From contig OZ244048.1 in the NCBI GenBank assembly GCA_965215265.1, positions 480,001 through 544,000 on the forward strand: a DNA stretch of 64,000 bases, read 5' to 3'. Shown piece by piece: positions 21,719 to 47,200 of the stretch. This DNA is from Candidatus Poribacteria bacterium. Its GTDB lineage: Bacteria; Poribacteria; WGA-4E; WGA-3G. The position numbers and the translations under genes are program-made. The notes under the pieces are model-generated. The model did no database searches. It was not told the DNA's origin and worked only from the letters and a program-made list of their open reading frames with translations. Each line of letters starts with the position of its first letter. The first letter of the stretch is position 1.

Positions 21719-21739
21719 ACGCGAATCACGCACACTAAA

Positions 21740-21797
21740 ATACCGCCGATCGTAACCCGACTTTTCAGAAACGCAAAATTATGCGGCCGGCGGTATC
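21740..21797 (+). terminator. Stem-loop between paralogs 1 and 2
   Basis: ATACCGCCG / CGGCGGTAT inverted repeat; weak U-tract. Confidence 0.4.
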
Positions 21798-21832
21798 TTC
21801 CAATACTAACCTATTTTAGGAGGACAAATATA

Positions 21833-22687: not shown

Positions 22688-22816
22688 ACGCGAAAGCAAA
22701 AATGCTTAATCATTAAATTTAATTTGATAAATTTTGATTAAAATGCCATAATATTAACAAAGTTTGTTTTAAACTTTACTAATCTATTTTGATTCTCTAA
22801 AAGGAGTTAAGTTCAA

Positions 22817-26294: not shown

Positions 26295-26822
26295 ATGGAT
26301 ACCCTTTCACAATTAATTGACTGGTTTCATCTCTTAGGGCTTTGGCTCCATATTATCGCCGCCGTAACCTGGATCGGAGGCAATCTCATCCTTGCCATCG
26401 TTATCGTCCCATACTTCAAAAAGACCTTACCACCTGTCCAACGCATTCAACTCTTGACACAGCTCGGTAAACGTTTTGAACCTGTTGTTTGGGGCTGTGT
26501 AATTGTCCTATTTTTCACGGGCATTTTCAACATCTTCAACGTCATTTCGTTCAACACGCCATCTGAAATACTGGGAACCTTCATGCGAACTTTGTTCATC
26601 AAGTTGATGCTCTTTATTGTTCTTATTATCTTGACAGCACTTCACAGCTTTATTTTTGGACCGAAATTATCATCCGCCATCGACTCCTTGGACGCAACGC
26701 TTGAAGCACTCCCGCCTGAAGTTGATCGACTCCGTTCTCAAATGTCGACGATTTCTAGTCTCATGGGGGTTGTTTCATTGCTCATCCTCTTAGCAGCGGT
26801 TGCCCTACGGATGGGAATTTAA
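26295..26822 (+). CDS. CopD-like / DUF4149 four-helix membrane protein
   Basis: WLHIIAAVTWIGG, FTG, IKL...LHSFIFGP. Confidence 0.7.
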   Translation: MDTLSQLIDWFHLLGLWLHIIAAVTWIGGNLILAIVIVPYFKKTLPPVQRIQLLTQLGKRFEPVVWGCVIVLFFTGIFNIFNVISFNTPSEILGTFMRTLFIKLMLFIVLIILTALHSFIFGPKLSSAIDSLDATLEALPPEVDRLRSQMSTISSLMGVVSLLILLAAVALRMGI

Positions 26823-26850
26823 TCTTTTCATAACAAACGGAGGAAAACCT

Positions 26851-27603
26851 ATGCGAATCCAAATTCTCGCCGACGTTGCCGAAGGAATCACCATCCCTAT
26901 TAACTATAACCATTGGCTTTCTGCAACCGTTTATCATTTCCTTGCCGGTTCCAATGCCCAATACGCCGATTTCCTACACAATGAGGGGTACCGCGTGCAA
27001 AAGAAACAGTTCAAACTATTCACCTTCTCACAGTTGATGGCACAACGACGGCAAGTGCGCAAGCAATATATCCACTTCGCCTCAACTTTGACATGGTACG
27101 TTTCTTCTCCAATTGAGCAGTTCTTAACCCATTTCGCCGATACCCTCCTCACACAACGGAGACTCTTCATAGGACACCATCAGCTGCAAATTCAAGATGT
27201 CAACGTTCTGCGCAGCCCACATTTTAAGAGAGAGATGCAATTCCGCTGTCTCTCTCCTATTGTCATGTCCACTGTCCGAACACACAACGGAAAAAGCCGT
27301 TGTCACTATTGTACACCCGATGACCCACAACTCTCCGAGCTCATCAAGAAAAACCTTATCCACAAACATGAGGCGTTGTACGCTAAACCTCCTCATAACC
27401 AGAACCTCACTTTCCACTTTGACCAAGGTTATATCAATCGGAACCAAGGACGCGTCACCCGCTTAGTAGACTACAAAGGCATCAAAATACGTGGTGTCTT
27501 ATGTCCATTTCGAGTTGTCGGCAGTCCCGAGCTCATACGCGTCGGCTACGAGTGCGGCTTCGGCGACAAAAACAGTGCCGGCTTCGGCATGGTTGAAGTC
27601 TGA
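26851..27603 (+). CDS. cas6: CRISPR-associated endoribonuclease Cas6
   Basis: PINYN, FLHNEG, FKLFTFS, LSPI, G-rich loop GFGDKNSAGFGMV; GGAGG RBS. Confidence 0.96.
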   Translation: MRIQILADVAEGITIPINYNHWLSATVYHFLAGSNAQYADFLHNEGYRVQKKQFKLFTFSQLMAQRRQVRKQYIHFASTLTWYVSSPIEQFLTHFADTLLTQRRLFIGHHQLQIQDVNVLRSPHFKREMQFRCLSPIVMSTVRTHNGKSRCHYCTPDDPQLSELIKKNLIHKHEALYAKPPHNQNLTFHFDQGYINRNQGRVTRLVDYKGIKIRGVLCPFRVVGSPELIRVGYECGFGDKNSAGFGMVEV

Positions 27604-27917: not shown

Positions 27918-30904
<2,987 letters not shown>

Positions 30905-30914
30905 GGAGAAACAC

Positions 30915-31742
30915 ATGCCAAGTATTCAGTTCCAAGGTAAAATTTTTCTTCAAGGGGAAATCCAAGCCAAGACCGGTTTACATATCGGAGGAAACTCCGG
31001 CGAATTAGACATCGGCGGAATTGATAATCCCTTAATCCGCAATCCTCTCACAAGACAACCCTACATACCAGGTTCCTCATTGCGAGGAAAAATGCGCGGT
31101 TTACTTGACAGACATTTTAATAAGCAGCTAAACAGACCTGTTGGCCGAAATGTCCGCGTACACGAGTGCGATCGCCCCGCGGATTACGATAAATGCCCAA
31201 TCTGTCAAGTGTTCGGAGTTGCACCCATCCGACAGTTAAGTGGCAAAACCATGCCCACGCGCCTAATTGTCCGAGATACCTTCTTGACTCAGGCATCCTT
31301 ATTGGCATTAGAGAAAGCGGATATGGATACCGACTTCACAGAGATCAAAACGGAAGTCGCCATTGACCGAATTACCGCCGCATCAACACCACGGCAGAAT
31401 GAACGAGTCCCCGCCGGGGCCACTTTCGGACCCTTCCAGATAGCCCACAGTTTTTATATACTAAACTCAAACAGCCCAAGCAATCGAATTCAAGATGAAA
31501 TCGGATTTTTCGACACCGTCCTCACCGGCATGGAACTCTTAGAGGATGACTACCTCGGCGGCTCAGGATCCCGCGGCTATGGACAGATCGCGTTTGAAAA
31601 CTTACAGATGACCTTTAAACCCCGTCAATACTATGAACGAGCAGATGTCGAACCGGAGCTCATTGCTGAAGACGTAAGTATTAAAGCCTTACGGAAAACC
31701 GGGTACGCAGCAAAGATTTTGGAGGCGATTCCTACTGAATAG
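30915..31742 (+). CDS. csm3: Type III-A Csm3 (Cas7 group RAMP)
   Basis: TGLHIGG, GGIDNP (catalytic Asp), PYIPGSSLRGKMR, KTEVAIDR, ERVPAG, LGGSGSRGYG. Confidence 0.97.
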   Translation: MPSIQFQGKIFLQGEIQAKTGLHIGGNSGELDIGGIDNPLIRNPLTRQPYIPGSSLRGKMRGLLDRHFNKQLNRPVGRNVRVHECDRPADYDKCPICQVFGVAPIRQLSGKTMPTRLIVRDTFLTQASLLALEKADMDTDFTEIKTEVAIDRITAASTPRQNERVPAGATFGPFQIAHSFYILNSNSPSNRIQDEIGFFDTVLTGMELLEDDYLGGSGSRGYGQIAFENLQMTFKPRQYYERADVEPELIAEDVSIKALRKTGYAAKILEAIPTE

Positions 31743-31750
31743 GTCCGAAT

Positions 31751-32791
31751 ATGGCAACTTATACCGTCTATCGATTAACATTCAAAACCCAGTTACATCT
31801 TGGACGTACCTCCGGGCCCGCGCTAAAGGGCAATCTCGGCCTAGAAAATACCGAAACCTATATCCAGGCAGACACCCTCTTTTCTGCATTATGCCAAACC
31901 TGGAGCATATTTTACGACACCAAAAGCCTCACTGCTTTTCTCGCTGGCTACACGGAAGGCAATGATCCGCTACCATTTACCCTAACCTCGGCATTCCCTT
32001 TTGCTCATGACGTTTACTTTTTTCCAAAACCTTTGACATTCGTTCACCCTTCCAAAAAGAGCAAGCACGTCCAATTCGTTTCTCGCTCCATTTTTCAGGA
32101 TATCATCTCCGGACACTCTCTCGACTTCAATGAGAATAATCTGATTAATGGTGAAAGGGTTTGGGTGAGTCCAGAAGAAAGTGAACCGCTTAAAATATCA
32201 ATGGGTGATGAGCTAATTGTCTGGGAAACTACCACCCGGCCACGTGTTACCACCGGCAGCCGAACTGCCGGCTCCGAAATATGGCATATCGAGAATGTCC
32301 AATTCAACAAAGGCTGCGGACTCTGGTTCGCTGTGACCTTTAATTCTGACGAAACAAAACAGAAAATTGAAACCTTGCTACGTGTACTTGGAGATACAGG
32401 CATTGGCGGTGAACGGAATGCAGGATACGGCTTGTTTGATTTTGACGAAACATCAATTGAGATGCCTACAGTAGACGCACCTGAGCAATTTGTCACGCTC
32501 TCACCGATATGCCCTGCCGCCCCAGATGAGCTCGAGGTGCTTCTCACCGGCGATGTCGCCTACAATCTCAATCTTTCTGGAGGACGGATGAGCAGTGCCG
32601 GAGGAACCCCTTCTCGCCGAAAGCAGGTCATGATGTTCACCGAAGGCTCCGTCCTCCATACAACCGGGAAACAAGTCGGAGGACTAGTCGATTTAAAACC
32701 CGATAATTGGGTGCATCCGGTCTATCGTTACGGATACGCGTGGACAGTCGGGATCAAAGGAATCCAAAATGAAACAGAGATATCAACTTAA
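31751..32791 (+). CDS. csm4: Type III-A Csm4 (Cas5 group RAMP)
   Basis: LHLG, ADTLFSAL, TSAFPF, GIGGERNAGYG, MFTEGS, HPVYRYG. Confidence 0.95.
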   Translation: MATYTVYRLTFKTQLHLGRTSGPALKGNLGLENTETYIQADTLFSALCQTWSIFYDTKSLTAFLAGYTEGNDPLPFTLTSAFPFAHDVYFFPKPLTFVHPSKKSKHVQFVSRSIFQDIISGHSLDFNENNLINGERVWVSPEESEPLKISMGDELIVWETTTRPRVTTGSRTAGSEIWHIENVQFNKGCGLWFAVTFNSDETKQKIETLLRVLGDTGIGGERNAGYGLFDFDETSIEMPTVDAPEQFVTLSPICPAAPDELEVLLTGDVAYNLNLSGGRMSSAGGTPSRRKQVMMFTEGSVLHTTGKQVGGLVDLKPDNWVHPVYRYGYAWTVGIKGIQNETEIST

Positions 32792-33926
32792 AACCATTAC
32801 GCCTATTCACATTGGCTCAGGCCAAATGTTGAACCACCTCGATGGATACTACGCAAACGGCAGATGGCATCAGATCGATTTAGACCGAGTCTTGAAACAT
32901 CCCGCAACCGATGTCAACCGTTTAACGAGCTCTATGGCACAACACCACTTCCGCTGGGAACATCACCTTCCACAAGATGGTACCAATCCAGCAGATTTTG
33001 CCGCCTATAGCTTACCTTGCTCCCAAAACCCAAATACAGTCGAAATCCGAGCAGCAATCAAAAACTTTGACAACTGCCCTTTTATTCCCGGTAGCACCCT
33101 CAAAGGCGCAATCCGAACCATGTTGTTAGCTGAACTTATTAATATAGATGATACGCTATATCAGGACAGTCGCGAACACTTAGAACGCCTAACAAAACGG
33201 AAAGGAGGCAATCCATGGAAAGAGACACCCGCCCTCCGAATTGAACAGGATGCTTTCGGAAGAGACGCGAATCATGACGTACTCCGCACTTTACACATCA
33301 GTGATACTACCCCAATTGAGACAAATTCACTTGCAATCGGCATGGCATGGACAGTTACGCTCGATCCGAACGATCAACTCGTCCAAAAAGTTGACAGAGG
33401 CAGGGAATACAAAAACTTTGTCCAGCAAATTCAAGCCGGGCAACGTCTCACATTTACCCTCAAGATTGATGAACTGCTTTTCCGGGAACGCGAAAAAGCA
33501 CAACTCCGTTTTACCGATTCACAAATGAAAGCCCTCCAAGATGTTGCCGAGATCTGCAGTTTAGTAACAGAGGAATTCATACAGAGTGAACACGATTTTT
33601 TTCAATACTACCATTTCCCGGAAATGGTCAACTTTTATGAGCGACTATTCCATAAAAACGTAAACCTTCCCGAGGGCGCTTTCCTTTTACAGCTCGGATG
33701 GGGCACCGGCTATCGCGCTAACACCGTCACATCTCTATTCACAAGCGACGAAGAAGCACCTATAGACCTATTGGAGCTGCAAAAACGGTTTCGGTTAGGC
33801 GAAAGCCGTTCTCGCCGAGGACAGTATGACAACCGTGAATTCCCCAAAACCCGACGAATTTTATATCGCGGCGAAAACCCTATTTGCCCCTTAGGCTGGG
33901 TAGAAATTTCACCGCTCGGAGCATGA
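32769..33926 (+). CDS. csm5: Type III-A Csm5 (Cas7 group RAMP)
   Basis: TPIHIGSG, PFIPGSTLKGAIRT, ISD, LGWGTGY, PKTRR, PLGWV. Confidence 0.95.
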   Translation: MKQRYQLKTITPIHIGSGQMLNHLDGYYANGRWHQIDLDRVLKHPATDVNRLTSSMAQHHFRWEHHLPQDGTNPADFAAYSLPCSQNPNTVEIRAAIKNFDNCPFIPGSTLKGAIRTMLLAELINIDDTLYQDSREHLERLTKRKGGNPWKETPALRIEQDAFGRDANHDVLRTLHISDTTPIETNSLAIGMAWTVTLDPNDQLVQKVDRGREYKNFVQQIQAGQRLTFTLKIDELLFREREKAQLRFTDSQMKALQDVAEICSLVTEEFIQSEHDFFQYYHFPEMVNFYERLFHKNVNLPEGAFLLQLGWGTGYRANTVTSLFTSDEEAPIDLLELQKRFRLGESRSRRGQYDNREFPKTRRILYRGENPICPLGWVEISPLGA

Positions 33927-33968
33927 ATACTGCTGATACTAGCATTCCTGAACCTAAGGAGAAACCTA

Positions 33969-35144
33969 ATGCTCAAAGCACTCACCTTCCTCGGCCTTGG
34001 AGGATACAAGGACACAACCTATATCAAGCATGATGATAAACAGAGTATGTGTAAAACTGATCTATTTCCTCAAGCCGTTGCCGAGTTATATCAGCCAAAT
34101 CTGCTCATCGCTTTTATTACCGAAAGCGTCAAAATAAAAAAACATGTCGATATTACACGCCTCACCGAGCAACTCGGAGGTAAATTTCGTACAGAGGATA
34201 TTCCTAATGGAAACTCACCAGAGGAACTTTGGGAGATTTTTGAAACCTGCGCAGCTGCAGTCGACGATAGGGATGAAATTATTCTCGATATTACGCATGC
34301 ATTTCGTTCAATTCCACTGCTCGTTTTCATCGTTGCTGCATACTTACGACAAGTCAAGCAGGTCACACTCAAGCATATCATCTACGGCGCGTTTGAGGCA
34401 CGAGATCAAAACAATCAAACGCCCATTTTTGACTTAACGCCATTTGTGGAACTGCTCGATTGGATGAACGCCGTTAACGTCTTCCAACGGTCCGGAGATG
34501 CACGTCCAATCGCCGACTTAGATACACACGACGATATTGGGAAAGTCCTTACAGATATGTCCGAGGCACTTCTTACAAATCGAACCCTGGAGGCTCAACA
34601 CGCGGCCTTCAGCTTTAACCAATTGAATCTCTTACAAAACACGCCCAGTCAACCCCCATTCGGTATGTTAATAAAAGGGTTGCAGGATAGCTACGCATCT
34701 TTTGCTGTTTACGAACCGCGCAAGCATCCTCGACAAAGCCTCAAAAAGCAGCATGAGCAAATCAGGTGGTACATTGAAAACCAACACTATCTCCAAGCCA
34801 TAACCCTGATTCGCGAATGGTTAATATCGTGGGAATGCATTCAACAAAATCGAGGAGATTGGTTGAGTCGAGACAGCAGGCAAAGAGCTGAAAAAGCATT
34901 AGGACAACGCACAGAACAGCAATCATCACAACTCGCGACAGGACTCGCGTCACTCGCTTCCAATGCGACGACTACCCAACTCTGGGCGCAATGCGCTGAT
35001 ATCCGAAACGATCTTGCCCACTGTGGAATGCGCCACAAACCACAAAAAGCCAGAGAGGCAATTCGAGCCATTAATGAGCTTTTCAGTAAATTTGAGGATT
35101 TTGTGAACAAAAATTTGGTATACCCGCCGAGCAGATCTGCTTGA
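33969..35144 (+). CDS. csx1: CARF-HEPN ancillary ribonuclease, Csx1 / DxTHG family
   Basis: TFLG, DITHAFRSIP (DxTHG-like CARF motif), YGAFE, DLTPF...DW, HEPN RxxxxH motif RNDLAH. Confidence 0.9.
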   Translation: MLKALTFLGLGGYKDTTYIKHDDKQSMCKTDLFPQAVAELYQPNLLIAFITESVKIKKHVDITRLTEQLGGKFRTEDIPNGNSPEELWEIFETCAAAVDDRDEIILDITHAFRSIPLLVFIVAAYLRQVKQVTLKHIIYGAFEARDQNNQTPIFDLTPFVELLDWMNAVNVFQRSGDARPIADLDTHDDIGKVLTDMSEALLTNRTLEAQHAAFSFNQLNLLQNTPSQPPFGMLIKGLQDSYASFAVYEPRKHPRQSLKKQHEQIRWYIENQHYLQAITLIREWLISWECIQQNRGDWLSRDSRQRAEKALGQRTEQQSSQLATGLASLASNATTTQLWAQCADIRNDLAHCGMRHKPQKAREAIRAINELFSKFEDFVNKNLVYPPSRSA

Positions 35145-35283
35145 AAATACACCAACATTCCTCTCTCCATCAAGGCGAAGGAAGTTCTGATAATTTTTTA
35201 AACCTTTTTGTAAGAAAGAACGTCTTAACCATCATATAGTAAGCATATAATAGAACCAGTTTGTAAGAAAGAAACGAAAGACC

Positions 35284-35314
35284 TTGACAAAAAAAAAGAA
35301 AGATAAGGTATAAT
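35284..35314 (+). promoter_or_regulatory. Putative promoter of the mini-array
   Basis: TTGACA (35284)-19 bp including a 9-A tract-TATAAT (35309); spacing is longer than optimal. Confidence 0.6.
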
Positions 35315-35390
35315 TTAATCGAAACCAGTTTTGTAATGAAAGAACGTCTTAATCATAGAATCGTAAGCATTTAATCGAAACCAGTTTGGA

Positions 35391-35450
35391 ATTGAAAATT
35401 GTTGTGTTGTTTAATGCAATGCTGCATCTCTCTAATCGAACCAGTTTGGA
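35391..35450 (+). ncRNA. Predicted mature regulatory guide RNA (5' handle AUUGAAAA + 30-nt spacer + 3' repeat part)
   Basis: Inferred Cas6 cuts in the flanking degenerate repeats; spacer 35399-35428 matches 35517-35533 at 15/17. Confidence 0.65.
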
Positions 35451-35482
35451 AATTTACATAATCTTTAATTCTTAAAAAAAAT

Positions 35483-35533
35483 TTGACAATCTGTTTTTTT
35501 TATTATATAATATCCATTGTTATGTTGATTAAT
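35483..35533 (+). promoter_or_regulatory. Consensus sigma70 promoter with predicted Cascade-binding site over its start site
   Basis: TTGACA 35483-35488, 17 bp, TATAAT 35506-35511; CCA 35514-35516 followed by TTGTTATGTTGATTAAT 35517-35533. Confidence 0.85.
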
Positions 35534-35565
35534 AACACAAAAAATTTAAAGGAGGTAATTAAGGA

Positions 35566-35988
35566 ATGATTTCCAGAATACAACTTATTAGACAATTGGT
35601 TGACGCTTGGAGGCAGTGCACTCATTTCGAGGGGACGATCGTGTCTAATGTAGATAGGATCAACAATGTCCCTAACCAACTCACCGAACTCGGAGTCGAC
35701 TATCTAATACCGCACTTGTTGGTAAATGAAAAATTGCAAGCCTTCGTATTCAAGGCGGAATTGGGAATGAAAAACCCAATCCAGGTCGTAGAAATTTATC
35801 ACGACATGCATCCACGAGGAACAGAATGGCGGGTACCACAAGCACAATTTGCTTTACGGTTGGATGAAGATTTAGCCGCGGGTGTGTCTGATGGCGTTGT
35901 AGTCACAGATTTCGTAGTTCCGTCCGGACAAACGGCTACCCTGGAAATAGAACGTGGATGTTTCATGCTCCCTAAGCTACCCTCTTAG
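35566..35988 (+). CDS. Hypothetical 140-aa protein, candidate CRISPR-repressed toxin or effector
   Basis: Intact ORF with AAGGAGGT RBS and its own consensus promoter; no family recognised. Confidence 0.75.
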   Translation: MISRIQLIRQLVDAWRQCTHFEGTIVSNVDRINNVPNQLTELGVDYLIPHLLVNEKLQAFVFKAELGMKNPIQVVEIYHDMHPRGTEWRVPQAQFALRLDEDLAAGVSDGVVVTDFVVPSGQTATLEIERGCFMLPKLPS

Positions 35989-36014
35989 CTTGTCATGCCC
36001 TTTTACGATTTTTC

Positions 36015-36043
36015 TGGACTTATGACGATAAAAATGGTATAAT
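36015..36043 (+). promoter_or_regulatory. Putative promoter of the type I operon
   Basis: TGGACT-17 bp-TATAAT with extended TG. Confidence 0.6.
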
Positions 36044-36083
36044 ATATATAAGTTATTATTTGTTTTCCAAAGGAGGAATTGAG

Positions 36084-36320
36084 ATGGAAGAACAATTAGA
36101 GTTTAATCTGCAAGATTCACAACCGGTGAACATGCCACAATTGGTACTGGAACTAACGGGGAACCCCTGGACCGATTTTGGCATCGTTAGCCTCTGCCAG
36201 GACTTATCCTCCTCTGCACCTTAACTAATGAACCGTCAAGGAAAAACGCGAAAAATAGAAATTCCATTTAAAGAAATTCAAGCCCCTTACACTTTTGACA
36301 TTGGACTCGAATTTGGGTAG
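36084..36320 (+). pseudogene. Remnant of a second cas8 5' end followed by a possible cas3 3' end
   Basis: AAGGAGG RBS; 36084-36224 encodes ...LELTGNPWTDFGIVSLC..., similar to the intact Cas8b KLMGNPFVDAGVCGIC. In-frame 36228-36320 ends EIQAPYTFDIGLEFG*, weakly similar to the Cas3 end IKVTYDETLGL. Confidence 0.55.
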
Positions 36321-36488
36321 GAAATTCGCTTGCTTGAATCCCCGAAATCACTCTCTGGTATTAAGGAATTTAAAACTATGATCATTATTAACCAATTCTC
36401 CGAATGTCGTGACATCAAATTTTTACACGCTTTTGATGCAGCAAAAAATTCACGACGTACCTACACCCTTTGAAAGGAGGCAATCGCT

Positions 36489-37901
36489 GTGCCAATCTAC
36501 GAAAAACTCATGGGCAACCCATTTGTCGACGCAGGAGTCTGCGGAATCTGTGAATGGTTGGGGCGCACAGTCCAACCGGAGCAAATTACCACAGCTGACC
36601 TTCAAAAGGTTGTTGAGGAAGTCGTTCCGATTATGAAACCGTTCGATAAAAAAAGACCTGAAGCACACGGTTGGAAAAATTGGGTTTCCATCTTCACAAC
36701 AAATCACCCGTTAACAAACCCATCTAGAAAAAGTAATCGGGTTGCAGATTTTAAAGCGCAGCTCCTTAACCACATTACTAACATGGAGGCCCTCGGCCAA
36801 ATCGGTAACTGTATAGGATGTGGAAGACGCGAGGCCAACACATGGTTATCAAGAATAGGTGTACCACTGACCGGATCAGGAACCTTGCGGAATTTTTTTC
36901 CAGTCTTTGATGAGGGAGCAGGCTACTGCTCTGCGTGTGCCTTTGCAATTCAGATGTCACCGCTTGCTTTTGTCGCCTCTGGTGGTAGGTTTCTTATACT
37001 TCACTCCAACTTTTGGGAAGCTCTAAGAATGTGGGCACGAAAATGCGTAACAGATGTTCGGCAACAACAACTCAGGCGAGAGATTACTGGATGTTTTAAC
37101 CCCGGCTACTCGAATCCACGAAACGGATTATTTTTCATGACCCAAGAAATGGTTCAATTGGAGGAGAGACGCCCGGATGCAAATGTATCCATGCAGGTCT
37201 ACTGTTTTACAAACTTTGGACAGAGCCCAGCCCTAGAGGTGTTCTATATGCCTGCCCCCATTTTCCGCTTTTTGAGATTCGCTTATCAAAAAGAATTCAT
37301 AACCGCATGGCAGGAAATCGTCAGAAGTGGTTACTATAACGTGAATTGGAATAAAGTTAAATCTGAGGAAGATTATAAAAACCGGACGAACCGTGTGTAC
37401 GAGTCCCTGCTCCAGGGACAATCCATTCTCCGGTCCTTTTTAAATCTACGTGCTCGAAAACCGAGAGGAAATTGGAAATTGCTTTCTCTCTATTTAAAGG
37501 AGGTTAGAACTATGGAACAAGCCAAACTTGATAAAATCAAGCAGGTCGCTGATCTCATCGCCGAAAGTATTCGTCAATCTGGACGAGATCGGCGACTGCG
37601 GCAGTTGGAGAACGCCAGAAATTACCGCGAATGCCGTAACGTGCTGCGCTTTGTTATTCGTGACAGAATTTCGCAAGAGGCTAAAGAACCGCTTTTCTCA
37701 CTCGAGGATTACATTCAATATCTTTTTCCAACGAGTGATAACATGACATTTTGGACCGAAACACGTGACTTGCTGCTTTTCCGACTCTACGAACAACTCC
37801 ACGATTGGCTGCAGACACAAGGTTTTGTTGATTTTGATGAAGAAGAGCACACAGCCGATACAAACGACGAACTTGAAACCCAAACTACCCAGGAGGACTA
37901 A
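36489..37901 (+). CDS. cas8b: Type I-B large subunit Cas8b (Cst1 / CXXC-CXXC type)
   Basis: GNPFVDAG, CIGC...PLTGS...NFF...CSAC; position before cas7-cas5-cas3; AAGGAGG RBS with GTG start. Confidence 0.88.
   Translation: MPIYEKLMGNPFVDAGVCGICEWLGRTVQPEQITTADLQKVVEEVVPIMKPFDKKRPEAHGWKNWVSIFTTNHPLTNPSRKSNRVADFKAQLLNHITNMEALGQIGNCIGCGRREANTWLSRIGVPLTGSGTLRNFFPVFDEGAGYCSACAFAIQMSPLAFVASGGRFLILHSNFWEALRMWARKCVTDVRQQQLRREITGCFNPGYSNPRNGLFFMTQEMVQLEERRPDANVSMQVYCFTNFGQSPALEVFYMPAPIFRFLRFAYQKEFITAWQEIVRSGYYNVNWNKVKSEEDYKNRTNRVYESLLQGQSILRSFLNLRARKPRGNWKLLSLYLKEVRTMEQAKLDKIKQVADLIAESIRQSGRDRRLRQLENARNYRECRNVLRFVIRDRISQEAKEPLFSLEDYIQYLFPTSDNMTFWTETRDLLLFRLYEQLHDWLQTQGFVDFDEEEHTADTNDELETQTTQED
37512..37901 (+). 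CDS. cas11: Internally translated Cas11 small subunit, in frame within cas8b
   Basis: AAGGAGG at 37497-37503 and in-frame ATG 37512 give a 129-aa helical product MEQAKLDKIKQVADLIA... Confidence 0.7.
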   Translation: MEQAKLDKIKQVADLIAESIRQSGRDRRLRQLENARNYRECRNVLRFVIRDRISQEAKEPLFSLEDYIQYLFPTSDNMTFWTETRDLLLFRLYEQLHDWLQTQGFVDFDEEEHTADTNDELETQTTQED

Positions 37902-37903
37902 CT

Positions 37904-38935
37904 ATGTCTAAACATCTTATTGGACTCACACTGATAGATGCCCCGCATTCCGCACTCAACAACGCGGGCATAGAACCATCCCTAGCCCAAGAAAACATTG
38001 TTGTCGTTAAAAAACTTCAGAAAGGACGAAATACTTACCCCTATGTTTCAGGACAAGCCTGGCGAAACTGGTGGCGGACCACGCTCGAACAAGAATTTGA
38101 GGATTGGAACAACTCGCCTATAGAACGAGAGACAAAAATTGCTTTCACTGCCGCGGATCCTGTCAAGTATGACGACGACGATGTCTTTGGCTACATGCGA
38201 GCACAGAGTCAAATGCAAGGCAAGAAGAAAGTCAATGTAACCGTAACACGTTTATCGCCTCTCAAGTGTTCACCGCTCATTGCCATCGCACCGCAAACAC
38301 CAACCAACGACTGGGGAGTTATGGCACGGCAAGAAGGCAATCCGGTACCTTATGAACATCAATTTTATGCATGCGTACTCCAAGGAATTTTCTCGCTTGA
38401 CCTTAACGCGGTCGGCACATTTTCGGACATCAACAGAACAGGCTATAGGAATATCGCGGACAGTTACGTTCCAACTATTGAAAAAGCAGGCGGAACACAG
38501 GAAAATGAAAATTCACCTTGGATATTGCCAAAGGATATTCGCACACGGCGATGCCAACAAACGCTCCAAACTCTCCCATTACTCAGCGGCGGTGCCAAAC
38601 TCACGTCGCATCTCACCGACGTTACGCCTAAGCTAATCATTCTCTCTATACTTGACGGCGGAAACCACCCCTTCATGAATCTGATAGTTGAGGAGGACGG
38701 GACCGGCAAACTAAGCCTCCCCGCTTTAAGGCAAGTCATGGAGGACTACGCGGACAGATTCCTAGAGCCGATTTACATCGGCAGGCGAACCGGATTCATG
38801 GATAATCTAGACGAATCTCTCAGTCAATTAAAAGACGATACAACCCTGCCATGCGAAGTCGTTTACGATTCGCCAAATCGAGTGATTGCCCAATTGGCGC
38901 AGAAACTCGAAGAACACATCGGAGACACCCCATGA
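37904..38935 (+). CDS. cas7: Type I-B Cas7 (Cst2/DevR family)
   Basis: ALNNAG, YPYVSGQAWRNWWR, DDDVFGYM, TRLSPL, GGAK...TDVTP. Confidence 0.95.
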   Translation: MSKHLIGLTLIDAPHSALNNAGIEPSLAQENIVVVKKLQKGRNTYPYVSGQAWRNWWRTTLEQEFEDWNNSPIERETKIAFTAADPVKYDDDDVFGYMRAQSQMQGKKKVNVTVTRLSPLKCSPLIAIAPQTPTNDWGVMARQEGNPVPYEHQFYACVLQGIFSLDLNAVGTFSDINRTGYRNIADSYVPTIEKAGGTQENENSPWILPKDIRTRRCQQTLQTLPLLSGGAKLTSHLTDVTPKLIILSILDGGNHPFMNLIVEEDGTGKLSLPALRQVMEDYADRFLEPIYIGRRTGFMDNLDESLSQLKDDTTLPCEVVYDSPNRVIAQLAQKLEEHIGDTP

Positions 38936-39693
38936 AGGTAATTCGCGTTCACATCACAAGTTGGGTGGCATCCTTCCGGAATCCGCTATTTATTAGCGGA
39001 TTCCAACCCACACTCGCTATACCACCCCTCTCAACAATCTACGGACTCCTCACTGCAGTCAAAGGCACCTGGGTGACACCCCATCATGCCGCAGTTGGGT
39101 TCGTCTTTCAGAGCAACGGAAAAGCCGTTGACTTAGAAACTGTCTACGAATTCAAAGGTAAATCACGATCAAAAGAAATACGGCTTGATGACGTAAAGCC
39201 CAATATCACTAGACGCGAATTTTTGGTCACACCCAATCTCTTTCTCTATACCCCTGACACATCTCTCAGAGAAACGTTTGAACGCCCGCACTATCCGCTC
39301 CTTTTGGGACGTTCCACAGAGTTAGCAACGGTAGCATCCATAGCAGAAATTGAACTACAGAAAGTCTCACAAACAACGTATCAAGATACCCTGATCCCTT
39401 TTCCACATCCACAGATACATGGACAAGTTCAGGCACTCCCAACCCACTTCACGGCAGAGATCCCACGAAAACCACTCGGCACGCGCGCTTACTGCCTCGT
39501 CACTGAAAAAATTAATTATCAGGGCGAAGCCTACCATGATCCAGAGAAGAACTGGGGTGTCTACCTACATGAACGTATCCCCGGGGATTTCCACGTCCCT
39601 ATTGAGCGAAGTCCACGAACTAGCAAACCTGTTGATAAAGATTTTAATATAGACACTGTCGACGGAGAACAATTGATATTTCCCGGCATCTAA
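38932..39693 (+). CDS. cas5: Type I-B Cas5
   Basis: ASFRNP...QPTLAIPPLSTIYGL, RREFL, LLLGRS; ATGA overlap with cas7. Confidence 0.93.
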   Translation: MKVIRVHITSWVASFRNPLFISGFQPTLAIPPLSTIYGLLTAVKGTWVTPHHAAVGFVFQSNGKAVDLETVYEFKGKSRSKEIRLDDVKPNITRREFLVTPNLFLYTPDTSLRETFERPHYPLLLGRSTELATVASIAEIELQKVSQTTYQDTLIPFPHPQIHGQVQALPTHFTAEIPRKPLGTRAYCLVTEKINYQGEAYHDPEKNWGVYLHERIPGDFHVPIERSPRTSKPVDKDFNIDTVDGEQLIFPGI

Positions 39694-39711
39694 CCGATTG
39701 GAGAAACTGAT

Positions 39712-41955
39712 ATGCCACCACTACTTGCGAAAAGCAACCCAACAGAAACGCTCCTTGGACATACACAGAATTGCATCGCTGTATTCGACAGTCTCCGGGA
39801 ACGGATGCCGTTTCTGGCAGATGTCTCCAAAGAACCAGATTTCTTCGATCACCTCTTCTACACCGTCGCGCTTCACGATTTCGGAAAAGCCACCACCGGG
39901 TTCCAAGAACAACTCACCACGGGCACACGCTGGAATTATCGACACGAAATCCTATCCGCCGGTTTCGTGGCTGGGCTGCAACTGCCACACGCAGCAAAAC
40001 AGGCAATCAGCCTCGCAATTCTTACCCATCATAAGGATATTCAGGCATTAATAGATGGATACCCATGCTTCCCACCTCACAACCCAGGATACAAGACCTG
40101 GAAGCAAAAAATTGCTGAACTCAAGCAAAATTGGGAACCACTTATGGAAATTCAACAGCAGGTCCACCACTGGTACCCGGGACGAAAGTGCCTCTTCGCA
40201 CCAGTACACTCCGTGGAAGCACTGAACAACGGCTATCACGATTTTCTTATACCCTATAAGAACAATTTCGACGACGCAGAATTAACACATTTACACGGCA
40301 CCTACGGGATGCTCCTACGCGGATGCATGATTGCGTGTGACCACCTCGCATCCGCCGGAAAAAATCAAATACACACCGCACTTGAAAACCTAGAAGCACA
40401 ACTCTCGCAGCACCTGAAAGAGAAGATTCAAGGCACCTTTCACGGCTGGGAAGCCTTTCAAGAAGCGACCGCGAAAATAACAGGACAACTGATGCTCTCG
40501 GCTCCCACTGGCTCCGGCAAAACTGAAGCCGCACTCCTCTGGTCCGCTAATAATCAAAACGAAACTTTAGGAAATCGGGTCTTTTACGTACTCCCTTACA
40601 CCGCAAGCATCAACGCCATGTATAAACGCCTCACGGAACTGCTTTCGGACGAAAAAATCGGGATATTGCACGGGAAAGCCAGTTACTTTGTTTATCAAGA
40701 ATTGATAGACAAGGAGCATACCCCCGAAGATGCCGCCCAATCTGCCAAACAGCAACAAGACTTGACACGAAAGATTTGCCGCCCCTACAAGGTCCTGACT
40801 CCCTTTCAGCTGCTAAAAGCATTTTTTGGCATCCGCGGCTTTGAGATGCAAATAGCAGAGATGTCCAAAGGGCTCTTTATCTTCGACGAAATCCACGCGT
40901 ATGACCCGCATACAACCGCCCTCATCTTAACGATGGTCGAGCAGCTCCACCGAGATTATGACGCAAAATTCTGCATCATGACAGCCACTATGCCACAGTT
41001 TCTCAAAAAAATCTTTGCCCAAGCACTCGGGGACCTGCAGCACGTTCAAATGCCGCCCACCGAACGCGATGCATTCACGCGCCATCGCGTTCAGTTACTT
41101 GATGGCTCTCTCCATAATGCAATTCCGCAGATTCAAGAGAAACTGGCACGTAGAAAGCGTGTCTTAGTCGTTTGCAATACCGTTCAGCAGGCACAAACCT
41201 TGTTTGAAGAACTGCAAGCAGTTGCGGATAACCCTCAACTCCTTCACAGCCGCTTTATCCTCAGAGATCGAGAACGCATTGAAAAAGAACTTGAACACGC
41301 AGATCTCCTTGTCGGCACACAGGCAGTAGAAGTCTCACTTGACATCGATTTTGACTGCCTTTTTTCAGAACCCGCACCAATCGATGCACTGATCCAACGC
41401 TTCGGGCGAATCAATAGGAAAGGTCAAAACGGCATCTGTGATGTCTGCATTTGCAAAGAGGGCGGTGCAAACGATCACTTCATCTACTCCAAAACCAAGG
41501 TTGACCTTACCCTAAACGCCTTCGCACCGATCGATGTCTTGCATGAATCTAAAATCCAAGACCTTATTGATGAAGTCTATTCCGCAGGTTACGATGAGAA
41601 AGAGAAGGAAAAGTTTGAAACCGCAAAGCAGCTATTTGAACGACACCTACAAGGGCTCGTACCCTTTATTGAAAATCCGTCAAGTCTGCAAGAATTTTAT
41701 GCACTTTTCAAGAGCATTGAGGTCGTACCAGCGTGTTATGAAGAAGAATTCTGGCAGAAAATTGAGAAGCGCCAGTACTATGAAGCCAAAGCTTACATCA
41801 CCCAAATTAGTCATAACCAATTTGCACGATTGCACAAAGATGGACAACTCTATGAGTGTAAACGCTTTGGACAGTTAGGTCAGTGGTTCATAAAGGTTAC
41901 CTACGATGAAACACTCGGTTTGCTCGTTGATGAACATAGCACGAACATCCTATAA
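39712..41955 (+). CDS. cas3: Cas3 HD nuclease-helicase
   Basis: LAKS...H, LHDFGKA, RHE, CDHLAS, APTGSGKTE, DEIH, TAT, LLHSRF, QRFGRINR. Confidence 0.97.
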   Translation: MPPLLAKSNPTETLLGHTQNCIAVFDSLRERMPFLADVSKEPDFFDHLFYTVALHDFGKATTGFQEQLTTGTRWNYRHEILSAGFVAGLQLPHAAKQAISLAILTHHKDIQALIDGYPCFPPHNPGYKTWKQKIAELKQNWEPLMEIQQQVHHWYPGRKCLFAPVHSVEALNNGYHDFLIPYKNNFDDAELTHLHGTYGMLLRGCMIACDHLASAGKNQIHTALENLEAQLSQHLKEKIQGTFHGWEAFQEATAKITGQLMLSAPTGSGKTEAALLWSANNQNETLGNRVFYVLPYTASINAMYKRLTELLSDEKIGILHGKASYFVYQELIDKEHTPEDAAQSAKQQQDLTRKICRPYKVLTPFQLLKAFFGIRGFEMQIAEMSKGLFIFDEIHAYDPHTTALILTMVEQLHRDYDAKFCIMTATMPQFLKKIFAQALGDLQHVQMPPTERDAFTRHRVQLLDGSLHNAIPQIQEKLARRKRVLVVCNTVQQAQTLFEELQAVADNPQLLHSRFILRDRERIEKELEHADLLVGTQAVEVSLDIDFDCLFSEPAPIDALIQRFGRINRKGQNGICDVCICKEGGANDHFIYSKTKVDLTLNAFAPIDVLHESKIQDLIDEVYSAGYDEKEKEKFETAKQLFERHLQGLVPFIENPSSLQEFYALFKSIEVVPACYEEEFWQKIEKRQYYEAKAYITQISHNQFARLHKDGQLYECKRFGQLGQWFIKVTYDETLGLLVDEHSTNIL

Positions 41956-42138
41956 CCCATCTCCTTGCCTGCTTGTTAATAGTGCTTGCCTTCACCCTAA
42001 TAACAGCTTCCTGTCTTGTTCCGCTGATAAGGACAGAAGAGGGGTTGTGGGCAAAGGCAGTTAGGAGATAGATTTTGACCTATATTAACCTGTCAACATA
42101 TTTTCAATTTCACGATATTACGCCAAGGAGACATACTC

Positions 42139-42648
42139 ATGCAAAATAACGATACAAACCACATCACCGGCACAGCCATCAACTACCTCTATATTTGCAC
42201 CCGTAAACTCTGGTTCTTTCAAAATCATCTTGAGATGGAACATACATCCGAATACGTCCAACTGGGCAAACTCCTACACGACGAAACGTACACCCGCGAA
42301 AAACGGAAAGAATGGCTCATTGACGACATGGTACGAATTGACTTCGTTGACAAAGACGGAATTCTACACGACGTAAAACACGGACCCGCTATGGAAAAAG
42401 CACACACGATGCAGCTCTGTTATTACCTCTACCTCCTTAAACAGAAGGGACTCACCAACCGCAACGGCATCATCAACTATCCACGTCAACGTCGAACTGC
42501 TGAGGTAGAACTCACAACTGAAATGGAGCACGAAGTGGAAAACGCAATCCAACAGGTCAAACAAATTGCCAAATTGCCTACGCCACCGCACGTTGAATAC
42601 ATGAAAATCTGCAAATCATGCAGCTACCAAGAGCTCTGCTGGAGCTAA
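42139..42648 (+). CDS. cas4: Cas4 exonuclease
   Basis: YLYICTRKLWF, GKLLH, RID, QLCYY, CKSCSYQELC Fe-S cluster motif. Confidence 0.96.
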   Translation: MQNNDTNHITGTAINYLYICTRKLWFFQNHLEMEHTSEYVQLGKLLHDETYTREKRKEWLIDDMVRIDFVDKDGILHDVKHGPAMEKAHTMQLCYYLYLLKQKGLTNRNGIINYPRQRRTAEVELTTEMEHEVENAIQQVKQIAKLPTPPHVEYMKICKSCSYQELCWS

Positions 42649-42661
42649 CACGGAGGAAATT

Positions 42662-43657
42662 ATGTCACGTAACTACTACATTACCCAACCCGGTAGACTC
42701 CGCCGCAAAAATAACACCCTCTATTTGGAAAAAGTCGATAATTCACGTGTCCCGATTCCCATAGAGGATATTGACGCACTCTATCTTTATGGCGAGCTTG
42801 ACCTCAACACAAAGCTACTCAGCTTCTTTGCACAGAAACAGATTCCGTTCCACGTCTTCAATTACTACGGATACTATGCCGGCAGTTATTATCCGCGCGA
42901 ATATCTTAACTCAGGCTCCCTTCTCGTTAAACAGGTCCAACACTATGAAAAACCGAGAAAACGTTTACCACTCGCACAAGAATTCGTTGCATCTGCTGTT
43001 TTCAACATCCTCAAAAATCTGCGATACTATAGCAACCGCGGCAAAGATTGCACCGACCAGATTAACGCAATTGAAGCCATCGCTCCGGAGATGCCCTCGG
43101 CGAAAAACACAAATGAATTGATGGGATACGAAGGCCTAATTCGAGACACCTACTACACCGCTTTCAACACAATCCTTGAACTCCAAACACCTTTTGAAAA
43201 GCGCGTCCGCCGACCCGCAGATAACCCAATTAACACCGCAATCTCTTTCGGAAACTCATTGATGTACGCCGCATGCCTCACCGAAATCTATCGAACCCAA
43301 CTCAACCCAACAATCAGTTTCCTCCACGAACCCGGAGATCGGCGATTCTCACTCAGCCTCGACCTCGCCGAAATTTTCAAACCCCTCATCGTAGACCGTA
43401 TTATTTTTCGCCTTTTTAACCGACGACAGCTCAACGAGCAGAAGCACTTTGAGACTGAAATCGGTGCATGCTACCTCAACGAAAACGGCAGGAAACTTTT
43501 CATCGCCGCCTTCGATGAACAACTCAAACAGACCGTCGCACATCGAAAACTCAAACGCAAAGTCTCCTACCAGCGACTCATACGATTAGAATGTTACAAA
43601 CTCATCAAACACTTAGTCGGAATGGAACCTTATCACGCCCTCCGCCCATGGTGGTAG
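42662..43657 (+). CDS. cas1: Cas1 integrase (I-B type)
   Basis: GRLRRKNNT, FNYYGYY, GYEG, NPINTAISFGN, SFLHEP, LDLAEIFKP. Confidence 0.98.
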   Translation: MSRNYYITQPGRLRRKNNTLYLEKVDNSRVPIPIEDIDALYLYGELDLNTKLLSFFAQKQIPFHVFNYYGYYAGSYYPREYLNSGSLLVKQVQHYEKPRKRLPLAQEFVASAVFNILKNLRYYSNRGKDCTDQINAIEAIAPEMPSAKNTNELMGYEGLIRDTYYTAFNTILELQTPFEKRVRRPADNPINTAISFGNSLMYAACLTEIYRTQLNPTISFLHEPGDRRFSLSLDLAEIFKPLIVDRIIFRLFNRRQLNEQKHFETEIGACYLNENGRKLFIAAFDEQLKQTVAHRKLKRKVSYQRLIRLECYKLIKHLVGMEPYHALRPWW

Positions 43658-43747
43658 ATAGGACAACATCATTTTTTATAGCCACTGCGGCTCCGTCTAC
43701 TTTTTGCGCAGATCATAGCAACGAAGTCTCATTGAAGGATAAGCAAA

Positions 43748-44011
43748 ATGTACATCATTCTCGTTTATGACATTGAAACGAAACGCGTCGCCAAAGTCTG
43801 TAAATACCTACGTCAGCACCTCAACTGGATCCAAAATTCAGTTTTTGAAGGAGAGTTGACGAAGGCACAACTTGCGCGCGTCAAAGCCGGTTTAGCCACA
43901 ATCACCAACCCTGAAAAGGACTCGGTCATCATCTATCAATTGCGTCACGCAAAATGGATGAAAAAAGAAGTCATGGGCATCGACAAAAATCCAGCCACAA
44001 ATCTACTATAG
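43748..44011 (+). CDS. cas2: Cas2
   Basis: MYIILVYDI...L.WIQNSVFEG. Confidence 0.97.
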   Translation: MYIILVYDIETKRVAKVCKYLRQHLNWIQNSVFEGELTKAQLARVKAGLATITNPEKDSVIIYQLRHAKWMKKEVMGIDKNPATNLL

Positions 44012-44240: not shown

Positions 44241-47200
44241 CTTTTAATCGCACCAATTTGGAATCGAAACTGAACCGCATATGCTACATCATTTGTAGTC
44301 TCAGCTGCCTTTTAATCGCACCAATTTGGAATCGAAACTGTACGCGAAAAAACAGTGCACTTTTCCGTCGCGACGCCTTTTAATCGCACCAATTTGGAAT
44401 CGAAACGACTTATAGAAGAGCAAGAATGGTCGTGCGAATACGCTTTTAATCGCACCAATTTGGAATCGAAACATAAGCAAAGTATAGAAAAAACTTTACA
44501 AGATGAAAACTTTTAATCGCACCAATTTGGAATCGAAACTACTGACTGTCCTACTGCGAAGACACATGATTTTAACTTTTAATCGCACCAATTTGGAATC
44601 GAAACGAGTTCCGTGTGGCGTTGTTTATCGGCACACTACTTCTTTTAATCGCACCAATTTGGAATCGAAACTTGACAGCGTATTCACCAGTAGTGAATCG
44701 GCATTGCTTTTAATCGCACCAATTTGGAATCGAAACTCAGTTGAAAATCATAACGCGAACTAATCACGATATCTTTTAATCGCACCAATTTGGAATCGAA
44801 ACTCGTCTTACTCCTCCCTATGAATGATGTTGCATAACACTTTTAATCGCACCAATTTGGAATCGAAACACATGTACCTCGCTGACTTTGTAAACGCATG
44901 TGCGGATCTTTTAATCGCACCAATTTGGAATCGAAACGCCTGCTGCAGCACACACTGCAGCAGGCCAACCCACTCTTTTAATCGCACCAATTTGGAATCG
45001 AAACATGCCACTGTCACTAGCAATATACCTGATCCGTTTTCTTTTAATCGCACCAATTTGGAATCGAAACGTGGTGGCCGTCGCAGGGTTGGGCCAGATC
45101 AGTTTATCTTTTAATCGCACCAATTTGGAATCGAAACTTAGCTAAACCTGATGTCACTGTCTTTCCACCGTTTACTTTTAATCGCACCAATTTGGAATCG
45201 AAACAAACCAATCTGACGTAAAAAAGAGTATACACGACGACTTTTAATCGCACCAATTTGGAATCGAAACAAAGTCAGCCACGTATTGAAGTCTTCACTG
45301 TCTTCAGACTTTTAATCGCACCAATTTGGAATCGAAACGACGTAAACTGGAGGGGACTTCTAACATGCAGGGTTTCTTTTAATCGCACCAATTTGGAATC
45401 GAAACGGAATCACCATCTGATGAATAAAGGATAAAAAAAACTTTTAATCGCACCAATTTGGAATCGAAACGTAGACGAATACGGACAATCGCAAAAAGAA
45501 TTATGTCTTTTAATCGCACCAATTTGGAATCGAAACCTTAGAAAATGGTAAAATCAAAGAATCAGGCTCTATCTTTTAATCGCACCAATTTGGAATCGAA
45601 ACCTGGCTTGGAATTGTGTGCCGAAGCGGTTTGCTTCGGCCTTTTAATCGCACCAATTTGGAATCGAAACATGAAAATATAATTCTCATCCGCGAATATT
45701 TCTTCGACTTTTAATCGCACCAATTTGGAATCGAAACGCCCAAAGGTAAAACCGCCTTCGTGCTGTCCCCCGCCTTTTAATCGCACCAATTTGGAATCGA
45801 AACTGATTGGATGTTTCAGAATGCTGCTTTTAGAAAGCGGGCTTTTAATCGCACCAATTTGGAATCGAAACTTGCGAGGTTTGTCGGTATCGTCCTAATC
45901 AAAACCTTCTTTTAATCGCACCAATTTGGAATCGAAACCAGCGTGCCTGCGTTTTCGGTATACTGTATCTGTGCCTTTTAATCGCACCAATTTGGAATCG
46001 AAACTCACTTTGATAGATAAAGTGTCGTCGCGGTATACGACCTTTTAATCGCACCAATTTGGAATCGAAACCAATACGGAATTCATAATCTTCATAGCGT
46101 TCCTTATGCCTTTTAATCGCACCAATTTGGAATCGAAACGATATTGAATTTTATCCAAACCAGAGGAGATAACTACTTTTAATCGCACCAATTTGGAATC
46201 GAAACAGTTGGCGGCGGTAAATATTTATATTTGCTCCGACACCTTTTAATCGCACCAATTTGGAATCGAAACTCAGGCGTGTCTCCTGAACCGCCCACTC
46301 CGATAACGCTTTTAATCGCACCAATTTGGAATCGAAACTTGCTGATATAGCGGTTTGTAGTGCCTCGCCAAGTGGCCTTTTAATCGCACCAATTTGGAAT
46401 CGAAACACGGCCACTTTATGCTCGGTTGATACGTCCGCATCCTTTTAATCGCACCAATTTGGAATCGAAACAATAGTGCAATGCTGCTGACCGCTGACGC
46501 TCCGTTAACTTTTAATCGCACCAATTTGGAATCGAAACTGTTAAGTTAAAAAAAGATGGGCAGATGTTTGGCTTTTAATCGCACCAATTTGGAATCGAAA
46601 CGAGGGGAAAGAAAAGACAAAGAAGGTAAAGACAGTCTTCTTTTAATCGCACCAATTTGGAATCGAAACGAGTTTCGCAGTATGTTTTTGATGATTGTAA
46701 ATTAACTTTTAATCGCACCAATTTGGAATCGAAACTTAATTGGAAAGCGTTTTGAAGGCTTGGATGGCTGCTTCTTTTAATCGCACCAATTTGGAATCGA
46801 AACGCGTCTGGATACGACAACGCATACCCAGCATGACTTTTAATCGCACCAATTTGGAATCGAAACTTTATCTTTTCTACGACTTTAATGAATGCCGGGC
46901 GCAGCCTTTTAATCGCACCAATTTGGAATCGAAACGGAAAAAGCAAACAAGATTCTCAGCACTGCTGGGAATCCTTTTAATCGCACCAATTTGGAATCGA
47001 AACGCTCCAATCCCATCACGCCACCATATTTGTAAGTTCCTTTTAATCGCACCAATTTGGAATCGAAACGAGGCACATCTACAAAGCGGTTGCTACTTTC
47101 TATACTTTTAATCGCACCAATTTGGAATCGAAACTGTCAACGGCCGGTATCAAGTTCAGGCTGTTGTCATCCTTTTAATCGCACCAATTTGGAATCGAAA

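Follow-up and report, generated by a model that had tools for sequence, protein, structure and literature searches.

A 64,000-nucleotide (nt) stretch of Candidatus Poribacteria DNA (the window; bases 480001-544000 of a single 4.83-Mb contig) was analyzed because it was predicted to hold a degenerate CRISPR mini-array, whose guide would be aimed at a nearby promoter in a type I-B cas locus. Coordinates are window positions, and all features lie on the + strand unless otherwise stated. The mini-array sits in a 421-nt intergenic region (35145-35565), between the genes of a type III-A module (27918-35144; csm1-csm5 plus a TM1812/DxTHG protein, by NCBIfam and Pfam matches) and an open reading frame (ORF) for a 140-amino-acid (aa) protein (35566-35988) that belongs to a small family and has a strong ribosome-binding site. 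The III-A module separates the mini-array from cas6 (26800-27603; TIGR01877, E 1.5e-42), the product of which is the likely processing enzyme. Downstream of the 140-aa gene, a stretch of approximately 400 nt without a long ORF leads to the type I-B effector genes cas8b1, cas7, cas5 and cas3 (36489-41955; TIGR01908, TIGR02585, TIGR01895 and TIGR01587/TIGR01596), and the complete I-B gene run continues through cas4, cas1 and cas2 (36489-44011). The effector set of cas6, cas8b1, cas7, cas5 and cas3 consists of uninterrupted ORFs with NCBIfam matches above cut-off, and the window cas8b is full length when compared with orthologues of 466-470 aa. The main CRISPR array follows (44241-55579; 170 repeats of CTTTTAATCGCACCAATTTGGAATCGAAAC).

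To score repeat copies against a null, the 421-nt intergenic region was shuffled 60 times, giving a best alignment score with a mean of 2.8 (sd 1.5) and a maximum of 8. The first degenerate repeat, psiR1 (about 35368-35398), scored 13 and the second, psiR2 (about 35428-35457), scored 10, in agreement with the claim that a spacer at 35399-35428 lies between two degenerate copies of the array repeat. This 30-nt guide spacer, the letters of which agree with those originally quoted, is referred to as psiS. psiR1 differs from the array repeat by four substitutions and an additional base; of its last 8 nt (ATTGAAAA), which would form the 5' handle, six are identical to the array repeat. psiR2 retains a TAATCG.ACCA.T.TGGAA core and has lost the last 8 nt. 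Two older and more decayed repeat-like copies, at about 35244 and 35310 (35244-35345), scored 9 and 8 against the shuffled maximum of 8, and are part of a 124-nt tandem duplication (direct repeat D1/D2). A promoter-like TTGACA-19-TATAAT (35284-35314) that could transcribe the mini-array was read directly from the sequence. Note that our promoter scan covered 16-18-nt spacers only, and therefore did not report this 19-nt arrangement; in contigs of runs X6 and X8 its A-run is one base shorter, giving an 18-nt spacer.

The proposed target is a strong promoter, P1 (35483-35511), with TTGACA at 35483-35488 and TATAAT at 35506-35511. A PAM-like CCA (PAM, protospacer-adjacent motif; 35514-35516) directly precedes the target site (35517-35534). 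This site lies where transcription is predicted to start; its first base is the sixth past the -10 box, and it equals guide positions 1-17 except at 6 and 12. These readings agree with the original prediction of a perfect TTGACA-17-TATAAT promoter (scored 12/12), a CCA before a site starting 6 nt after the -10 box, and a 15/17 match to 35517-35533 with mismatches only at positions 6 and 12. Pairing had been said to stop after 17 nt; guide position 18 likewise falls on a “free” position, with the break in pairing at 19-20. The similarity between guide and target begins exactly at the repeat/spacer junction, and the upstream flanks of the two sites are unrelated (handle AAA, AAT or AAC at the guide versus CCN at the target).

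Run lengths for this match were counted with every sixth position left free. By this count no other run in the 4.83-Mb genome, on either strand, is as long as the 18 at 35517, the spacer itself excepted; the next-best sites reach 13, and CCN precedes none of them. When only the 400 nt downstream were considered, none of 5000 shuffled spacers exceeded 13, and the maximum run was 9 for the canonical array spacers (all 169) and 14 for the 254 remaining registers within the intergenic region. On these sequence counts, a chance origin of the guide-target match is excluded. It might still be argued that the mini-array is a dead array remnant, with a promoter similarity left over from local duplication or arisen by chance, as the region is AT-rich, carries the 124-nt tandem duplication and several decayed repeats, and belongs to a genome with other small arrays. 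This is barely credible for a target that is the genome-wide best match, with a similarity that starts at the repeat/spacer junction between unrelated flanks and, as described below, with compensatory changes in five lineages whose differing guides exclude the related loci being recent copies of one another.

Relatives were sought among the 176 genomes of the phylum, 52 of which have a cas8b orthologue (E<=1e-60), and regions upstream of cas8b were read in 49 loci (30 + 19). Most of these have cas6 65-80 nt upstream of cas8b, with one consensus promoter between. A layout of promoter, psiR1, psiS, psiR2, strong promoter, CCN and target was found in eight of the 49, the window's own locus included (genomes G000, G030, G073, G081, G082, G133a, G144 and G156b). 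A search with the 140-aa family added G172, which has the same layout, and G131, whose contig begins just before the target, leaving only the target visible. Beyond the window there are thus eight further Candidatus Poribacteria loci with the layout and a ninth with the target only. The target lies 105-134 nt downstream of the guide and 1-10 nt after the -10 box, and its promoter is a perfect TTGACA-16/17-TATAAT in eight of ten loci. All ten targets have a CCN flank (CCA in four, CCT in five and CCG in one). In G144 and G156b, a TTGACA...TATAAT is located just upstream of the first repeat copy.

Guides vary by lineage (positions 1-5, for example, read TTGTT, TAATA or ATGTA), and the target changes alike. 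For quantification, one representative was taken from each of five lineages, and positions 1-17 without 6 and 12 were considered to be pairing positions. Within their own loci, 74 of 75 pairing positions match; when guides were swapped onto the targets of other lineages using all 44 derangements, at most 49 of 75 matched (mean 44.2). Covariation of spacer and target in related genomes had been proposed as a check of the prediction, and was passed strongly. The loci constitute a natural data set in which guide and target vary between lineages and covary at 12 of the 15 pairing positions, while the sixth positions drift, with mismatches at 6, 12 and 18 in 4/5, 5/5 and 5/5 representatives, respectively. 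Across eight loci, positions 6 and 12 take 13 of the 16 mismatches within 1-17, as expected from the predicted every-sixth-position pairing signature; mismatches in G172 are at 6, 12 and 13. In most loci pairing extends to position 17-18, and in G082 and G030 it continues to 22-24, for an overall natural range of 17-24 nt.

A pair of 17-nt motif copies separated by about 105-134 nt, with one copy at a promoter, could also serve a looping repressor, in which case the pair would be twin operators of a DNA-binding protein; alternatively, they could have been kept alike by gene conversion, with no RNA guide in either case. The concentration of 13/16 mismatches on every sixth position is predicted by neither, and one copy always follows a CRISPR RNA (crRNA) 5' handle while the other always follows CCN (10/10). 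Flanks have not been homogenized. Both of these explanations are considered highly improbable.

Decay of the two repeat copies is asymmetric in a manner that follows crRNA logic, as judged from alignments with each genome's own repeat. The last 8 nt of psiR1 are identical at 6-8 of eight positions in 9/9 loci; for psiR2 the corresponding values are only 0-4 of eight, again in 9/9 loci, so that the handle is kept in the first copy and lost in the second. In the first 22 nt of psiR2, ungapped identity ranges from 3 to 21 of 22 (20-21/22 in three loci) and is blurred by register shifts, and retention of this part should be considered only partly shown. The TAATCG.ACCA.T.TGGAA core is kept in all psiR2 copies inspected by eye.

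The CCA, CCT and CCG flanks were compared with the type I-B system of Thermotoga maritima, which belongs to the same Cas8b1 family (TIGR01908) as the window system and has the same AAC repeat end. For this system a YYD PAM, a seed of positions 1-5 and 7, a position-6 mismatch without binding effect, and rejection of the repeat-derived AAC flank have been reported (PMC13199841). All three flanks fit YYD, and the claim that CCN or YCN PAMs occur in I-B systems is in line with that report. A role for the guide with the neighboring type III-A (Csm) complex acting on RNA was also considered, as the III-A genes are the immediate upstream neighbors, and Cas6 and the repeat are probably common to the two systems. 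The guide has the same sense as the P1 transcript and therefore cannot pair with it, as the original prediction had pointed out in stating that the co-resident III-A complex could not target that mRNA. Furthermore, the CCN flank and the sixth-position pattern are type I features, and in relatives the mini-array precedes I-B cas8b, with no III-A gene noted in the <=1.5-1.8 kb read upstream. We consider a III-A function for the guide extremely unlikely.

Taken together, the sequence comparisons support the original prediction, and from them we infer transcription, processing, binding and repression. The element is, with high probability, a regulatory mini-CRISPR of the CreR/CreA type belonging to the type I-B system. 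The mini-array would be transcribed, probably from the promoter-like sequence at 35284-35314, and Cas6 would cut 8 nt before the end of each repeat copy to give an RNA of approximately 60 nt that joins the 5' handle AUUGAAAA to the 30-nt guide and to the initial part of psiR2. I-B Cascade would load this RNA, recognize CCA through Cas8b, and pair guide positions 1-5, 7-11 and 13-17 with 35517-35533 over the P1 start site. Every sixth base would be flipped out and would not need to pair, as suggested by the covariation and by published I-B biochemistry. With approximately 17-18 nt of pairing Cascade is expected to be a repressor of P1 rather than a nuclease, because an R-loop that stops at this length would be too short to license Cas3. 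P1 would drive the 140-aa gene and probably read through into cas8b-cas7-cas5-cas3, since no terminator-like site was found on the + strand when 35100-36600 was scanned. Such a loop would couple expression to the amount of free, working Cascade.

Several observations weigh against this proposal or limit it. Between the 140-aa gene and cas8b there is a second promoter-like site (TGGACT-17-TATAAT with TG, 36015-36043; 10/12), and in relatives that lack the 140-aa gene the target is likewise followed by a second promoter; for this reason, P1 may control the cas operon only in part. Of the 21 sequencing runs listed, 17 contain the sequence, and none of these 17 is on record as RNA. The 169 array spacers, searched for protospacers that might define the PAM, had no match in a phage collection, and in their own genome only two repeat-element matches (sp096 and sp011) with flanks AAC, CAA and ACC. 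The 1379 spacers from 11 related arrays yielded nothing useful for the PAM when compared with the genome of the window, and the window array gave only array-to-array alignments, and no protospacer, against the 176 genomes of the phylum. Because the genomes with related loci are kin, the number of independent cases is only about five. Finally, contigs of four DNA runs have no substitution in the core 35290-35537, and have 1-nt deletions at 35289, 35378 and 35538/35539. This conservation is not significant, as there are only 9 substitutions in 977 nt of run X6, and strain contigs cannot test covariation due to the small number of changes.

Spacer 96 (50608-50644) matches genome positions 623045-623081 at 36/37, the sole mismatch being at position 6, and the site has an AAC flank, which is the repeat-derived flank reported to be rejected by the related T. 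maritima I-B system (PMC13199841). The match falls in a repeated palindromic element that is also matched by spacer 11. Three ordinary spacers (sp153, sp130 and sp068) match the chromosome from position 1 over 17-20 nt, and at two of the sites CCN precedes the match. A regulatory reading of such partial matches by ordinary spacers was rejected, as long runs were about as numerous in controls with other offsets, with reverse-complemented spacers and with reversed spacers.

The mechanism is not new, and the element is of a known kind, because the CreR/CreA class of regulatory mini-arrays has already been described and is common. CreR/CreA elements are degenerate mini-CRISPRs with which Cascade represses cas promoters, as reported for Haloarcula hispanica (I-B), Salmonella (I-E) and Moraxella (V-A) (10.1101/2023.03.10.532045). 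The same source reports that CreA/CreR RNAs repress both cas and toxin promoters in I-B, I-E and V-A systems, which agrees with the description of these crRNA-like RNAs as promoter repressors in the original prediction. As in CreR/CreA, two degenerate repeats surround a short spacer inside a cas locus of subtype I-B, the first repeat retains the portion that forms the 5' handle, and a seed-anchored partial match lies next to a PAM-like flank at a promoter within the cas locus; in the first 22 nt of the second repeat, only the core motif was seen to be kept. Unlike the CreR/CreA elements described there, the present one belongs to a bacterial host of the Poribacteria and is known from sequence alone, its target is located where transcription would start from a consensus promoter that is additional to, and upstream of, the usual cas8b promoter, and its first regulated gene encodes a 140-aa protein with no family match. 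Figure S6 of that source may already list related loci.

Shmakov et al. (2023) reported mini-arrays in 18% of I-B loci, targeting promoters of cas8, cas6 or cargo genes, and tested an I-F1 mini-array guide of P. aeruginosa YL84 that has mismatches at 6 and 12 (PMC10120712). In the present elements, too, the spacer has partial complementarity to promoters of cas8 or cargo genes, with a PAM-like flank and mismatches at 6 and 12, and their frequency (8 of 49 cas8b loci) is close to the value for I-B in that report. Here the sixth-position pattern is a footprint across lineages, as opposed to one guide. The word Poribacteria is absent from the main text of that paper, although its mini-array tables may list related loci. 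In Parageobacillus thermoglucosidasius, an I-B system with Cas3 present represses with <=26 nt of pairing and cleaves with >=27 nt (PMC10551041). The natural pairs of 17-24 nt resemble those truncated crRNAs in their short pairing, and differ in that the former are natural, conserved elements with a CCN flank whereas the latter are an engineered tool with a TTA PAM.

What the present loci add, as far as sequence can tell, is a clear 5+1 footprint, a CCD PAM footprint and a link to an uncharacterized cargo family. They would extend guide-mediated self-control of CRISPR effectors to Candidatus Poribacteria, and their covariation can be taken as an evolutionary read-out, obtained without experiment, of how I-B Cascade reads DNA, including the seed and the PAM (CCD).

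The first product of P1 is not a cas gene but the 140-aa gene. The protein had no match in Pfam (E<=0.1), NCBIfam, PADLOC, PHROGs or a protein atlas. A word-indexed search of 5.8 billion proteins returned four clusters, and a set of 1.84 billion contained 20 representative clusters at E<=1e-3. No relative was found by scanning metagenomes, and one by scanning genome contigs. Within the phylum the family is present in nine of 176 genomes. The predicted structure has a pLDDT (predicted local distance difference test) of 85 and a pTM (predicted template modeling score) of 0.81. Fold searches of this model against PDB and BFVD returned nothing at E<=1e-3; the best weak matches in both were single-strand-binding proteins of the oligonucleotide/oligosaccharide-binding (OB) fold, which should be considered a lead only.

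This small family, the expression of which would be tied to working Cascade, is a candidate for a new CRISPR-guarding cargo, and the main role of the element might be that of an addiction or anti-anti-CRISPR module. By this explanation the 140-aa protein is a toxin or growth arrester that Cascade and the guide keep silent, to be released when Cascade is lost or is blocked by an anti-CRISPR; the guide mechanism is the same as for cas autoregulation and the purpose differs. There is a precedent in CrePA of the Acinetobacter I-F system, in which a Cascade-repressed toxin, CreP (103 aa, KilAC domain), is paired with CreA (10.1101/2024.01.05.574328). As in CrePA, a protein gene within the cas locus has a promoter matched by a crRNA-like guide. 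Unlike CreP, the 140-aa protein is from a I-B system and shows similarity neither to the KilAC domain nor to another family (Pfam, PADLOC, PHROGs), and its toxicity is purely putative. Its top weak fold matches are OB-fold DNA-binding proteins.

Distribution of the gene bears on this explanation in both directions. A 140-aa homologue lies between the target and the large-subunit gene in G000, G082, G144, G156b, G172 and G131, as the first gene behind P1 with its strong ribosome-binding site in the window, and the family is tiny and is found only beside these loci. In four loci (G000, G082, G144 and G172) an intact copy follows a promoter that the guide matches; for the intact copy of G131, the target can be seen. 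Three copies are broken: that of G156b has two frame changes, with a target mismatch at position 8 and an intact cas8b; that of G150 lacks its N-terminus, and the mini-array is also missing; and that of G142 is a fragment. These states would fit a cargo that must stay silent, as does CreP in Acinetobacter I-F. Against this, G010 has a copy that is apparently uninterrupted, although some of its bases read N. Upstream of this copy there is no more of a repeat than its last 12 nt, and a search for a guide-target pair found none. In addition, G030, G073, G081 and G133a have guide, promoter and target directly before cas8b, with a second promoter and cas8b following the target within about 30-100 nt, and no 140-aa gene; from its sequence, the element in these four serves simply to regulate cas genes. 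Only a few loci are involved, and their genomes are kin. An addiction or anti-anti-CRISPR role as the main function is possible, though we lean against it, and the more specific proposal that the cargo is a toxin-like guard is somewhat more doubtful still.

In one of the loci without the gene (L009 in G030), a ribosome-binding site and an 8-codon ORF (MD...) were seen approximately 60 nt downstream of the target and before the cas8b promoter. This short ORF may be the remnant of a deleted 140-aa gene.

Evidence for a deletion was found downstream of the 140-aa gene in the window. An ORF at 36084-36224 contains the first 44 codons (36084-36215) of a 570-590-aa gene, a family that in the relatives G172 and G131 is located next after the 140-aa gene. 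One member of this family is 98% identical and 582 aa in length. Contigs of run X6 leave the window sequence at 36216, rejoin it at 36223, and continue as a full 570-590-aa gene, and a run X8 contig bridges the 36216-36223 joint as in the window. From the structure of these contigs, the window genome lost the 570-590-aa gene by deletion, and the cassette now precedes the 470-aa cas8b1. The 570-590-aa family has no NCBIfam match and only an N-terminal motif in common with Cas8b; by position, the protein is probably an alternative large subunit. The cassette is found before two unrelated large-subunit genes, of the 470-aa and 575-aa types, a further point in favor of an addiction role. Note also that psiR1 is closer to the repeat variant of another genus (G152, G144) than to the repeat of its own genome. 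The deletion scar and this foreign-like psiR1 suggest that the cassette moves between I-B loci. A tentative extension, which we regard as unlikely in full, is that the cassette is a portable module placing a new, possibly OB-fold-like family under Cascade control before a large-subunit gene, the protein being a Cascade-repressed toxin or an anti-anti-CRISPR effector. If true, this would be the first protein cargo of such a kind for a bacterial I-B system, and one that would be set off by the loss of Cascade, by its titration with crRNAs or by an anti-CRISPR that blocks it.

The window cas6 is 64-70% identical to the cas6 found directly upstream of cas8b in relatives, and for this reason is taken to be the I-B-type enzyme, now parted from cas8b by the III-A genes. 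A second cas6 is present elsewhere in the genome.

Other repeat and promoter arrangements were noted upstream of cas8b in the phylum. In G082 (L032), the target promoter occurs twice between -750 and -620 relative to cas8b, as an identical 29-nt TTGACA...TATAAT, and CCT plus a guide-matched site follow the first copy only. Single repeat copies, for which no second copy and no target were found, lie directly before the cas6 start in G017 (L018; approximately 860 nt upstream of cas8b) and directly before the cas8b ribosome-binding site in G027 (L020; 72 nt upstream of cas8b).

Outside the main array, the genome contains four other small arrays, with 2-3 repeats each, at positions 23953 (-), 935545 (+), 2273093 (-) and 4318526-4318691 (-). 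In some of them a leader-like promoter is present and the last repeat is decayed; one is just upstream of a radC-like gene. Within the window, three tandem paralogous ORFs of 276-284 aa (20885-23647) are arranged in repeat units of 963-969 nt; their DNA identity is 61-85%, and they have no NCBIfam match. The csm2 ORF (30191-30904) encodes an N-terminal cold-shock domain (CspA/CspE-like, residues 47-113) followed by the Csm2 domain (residues 153-234). At the far end of the main array, a 73-nt “spacer” (55009-55081) marks a lost or decayed repeat, and the last repeat (55550-55579) ends in G instead of C.

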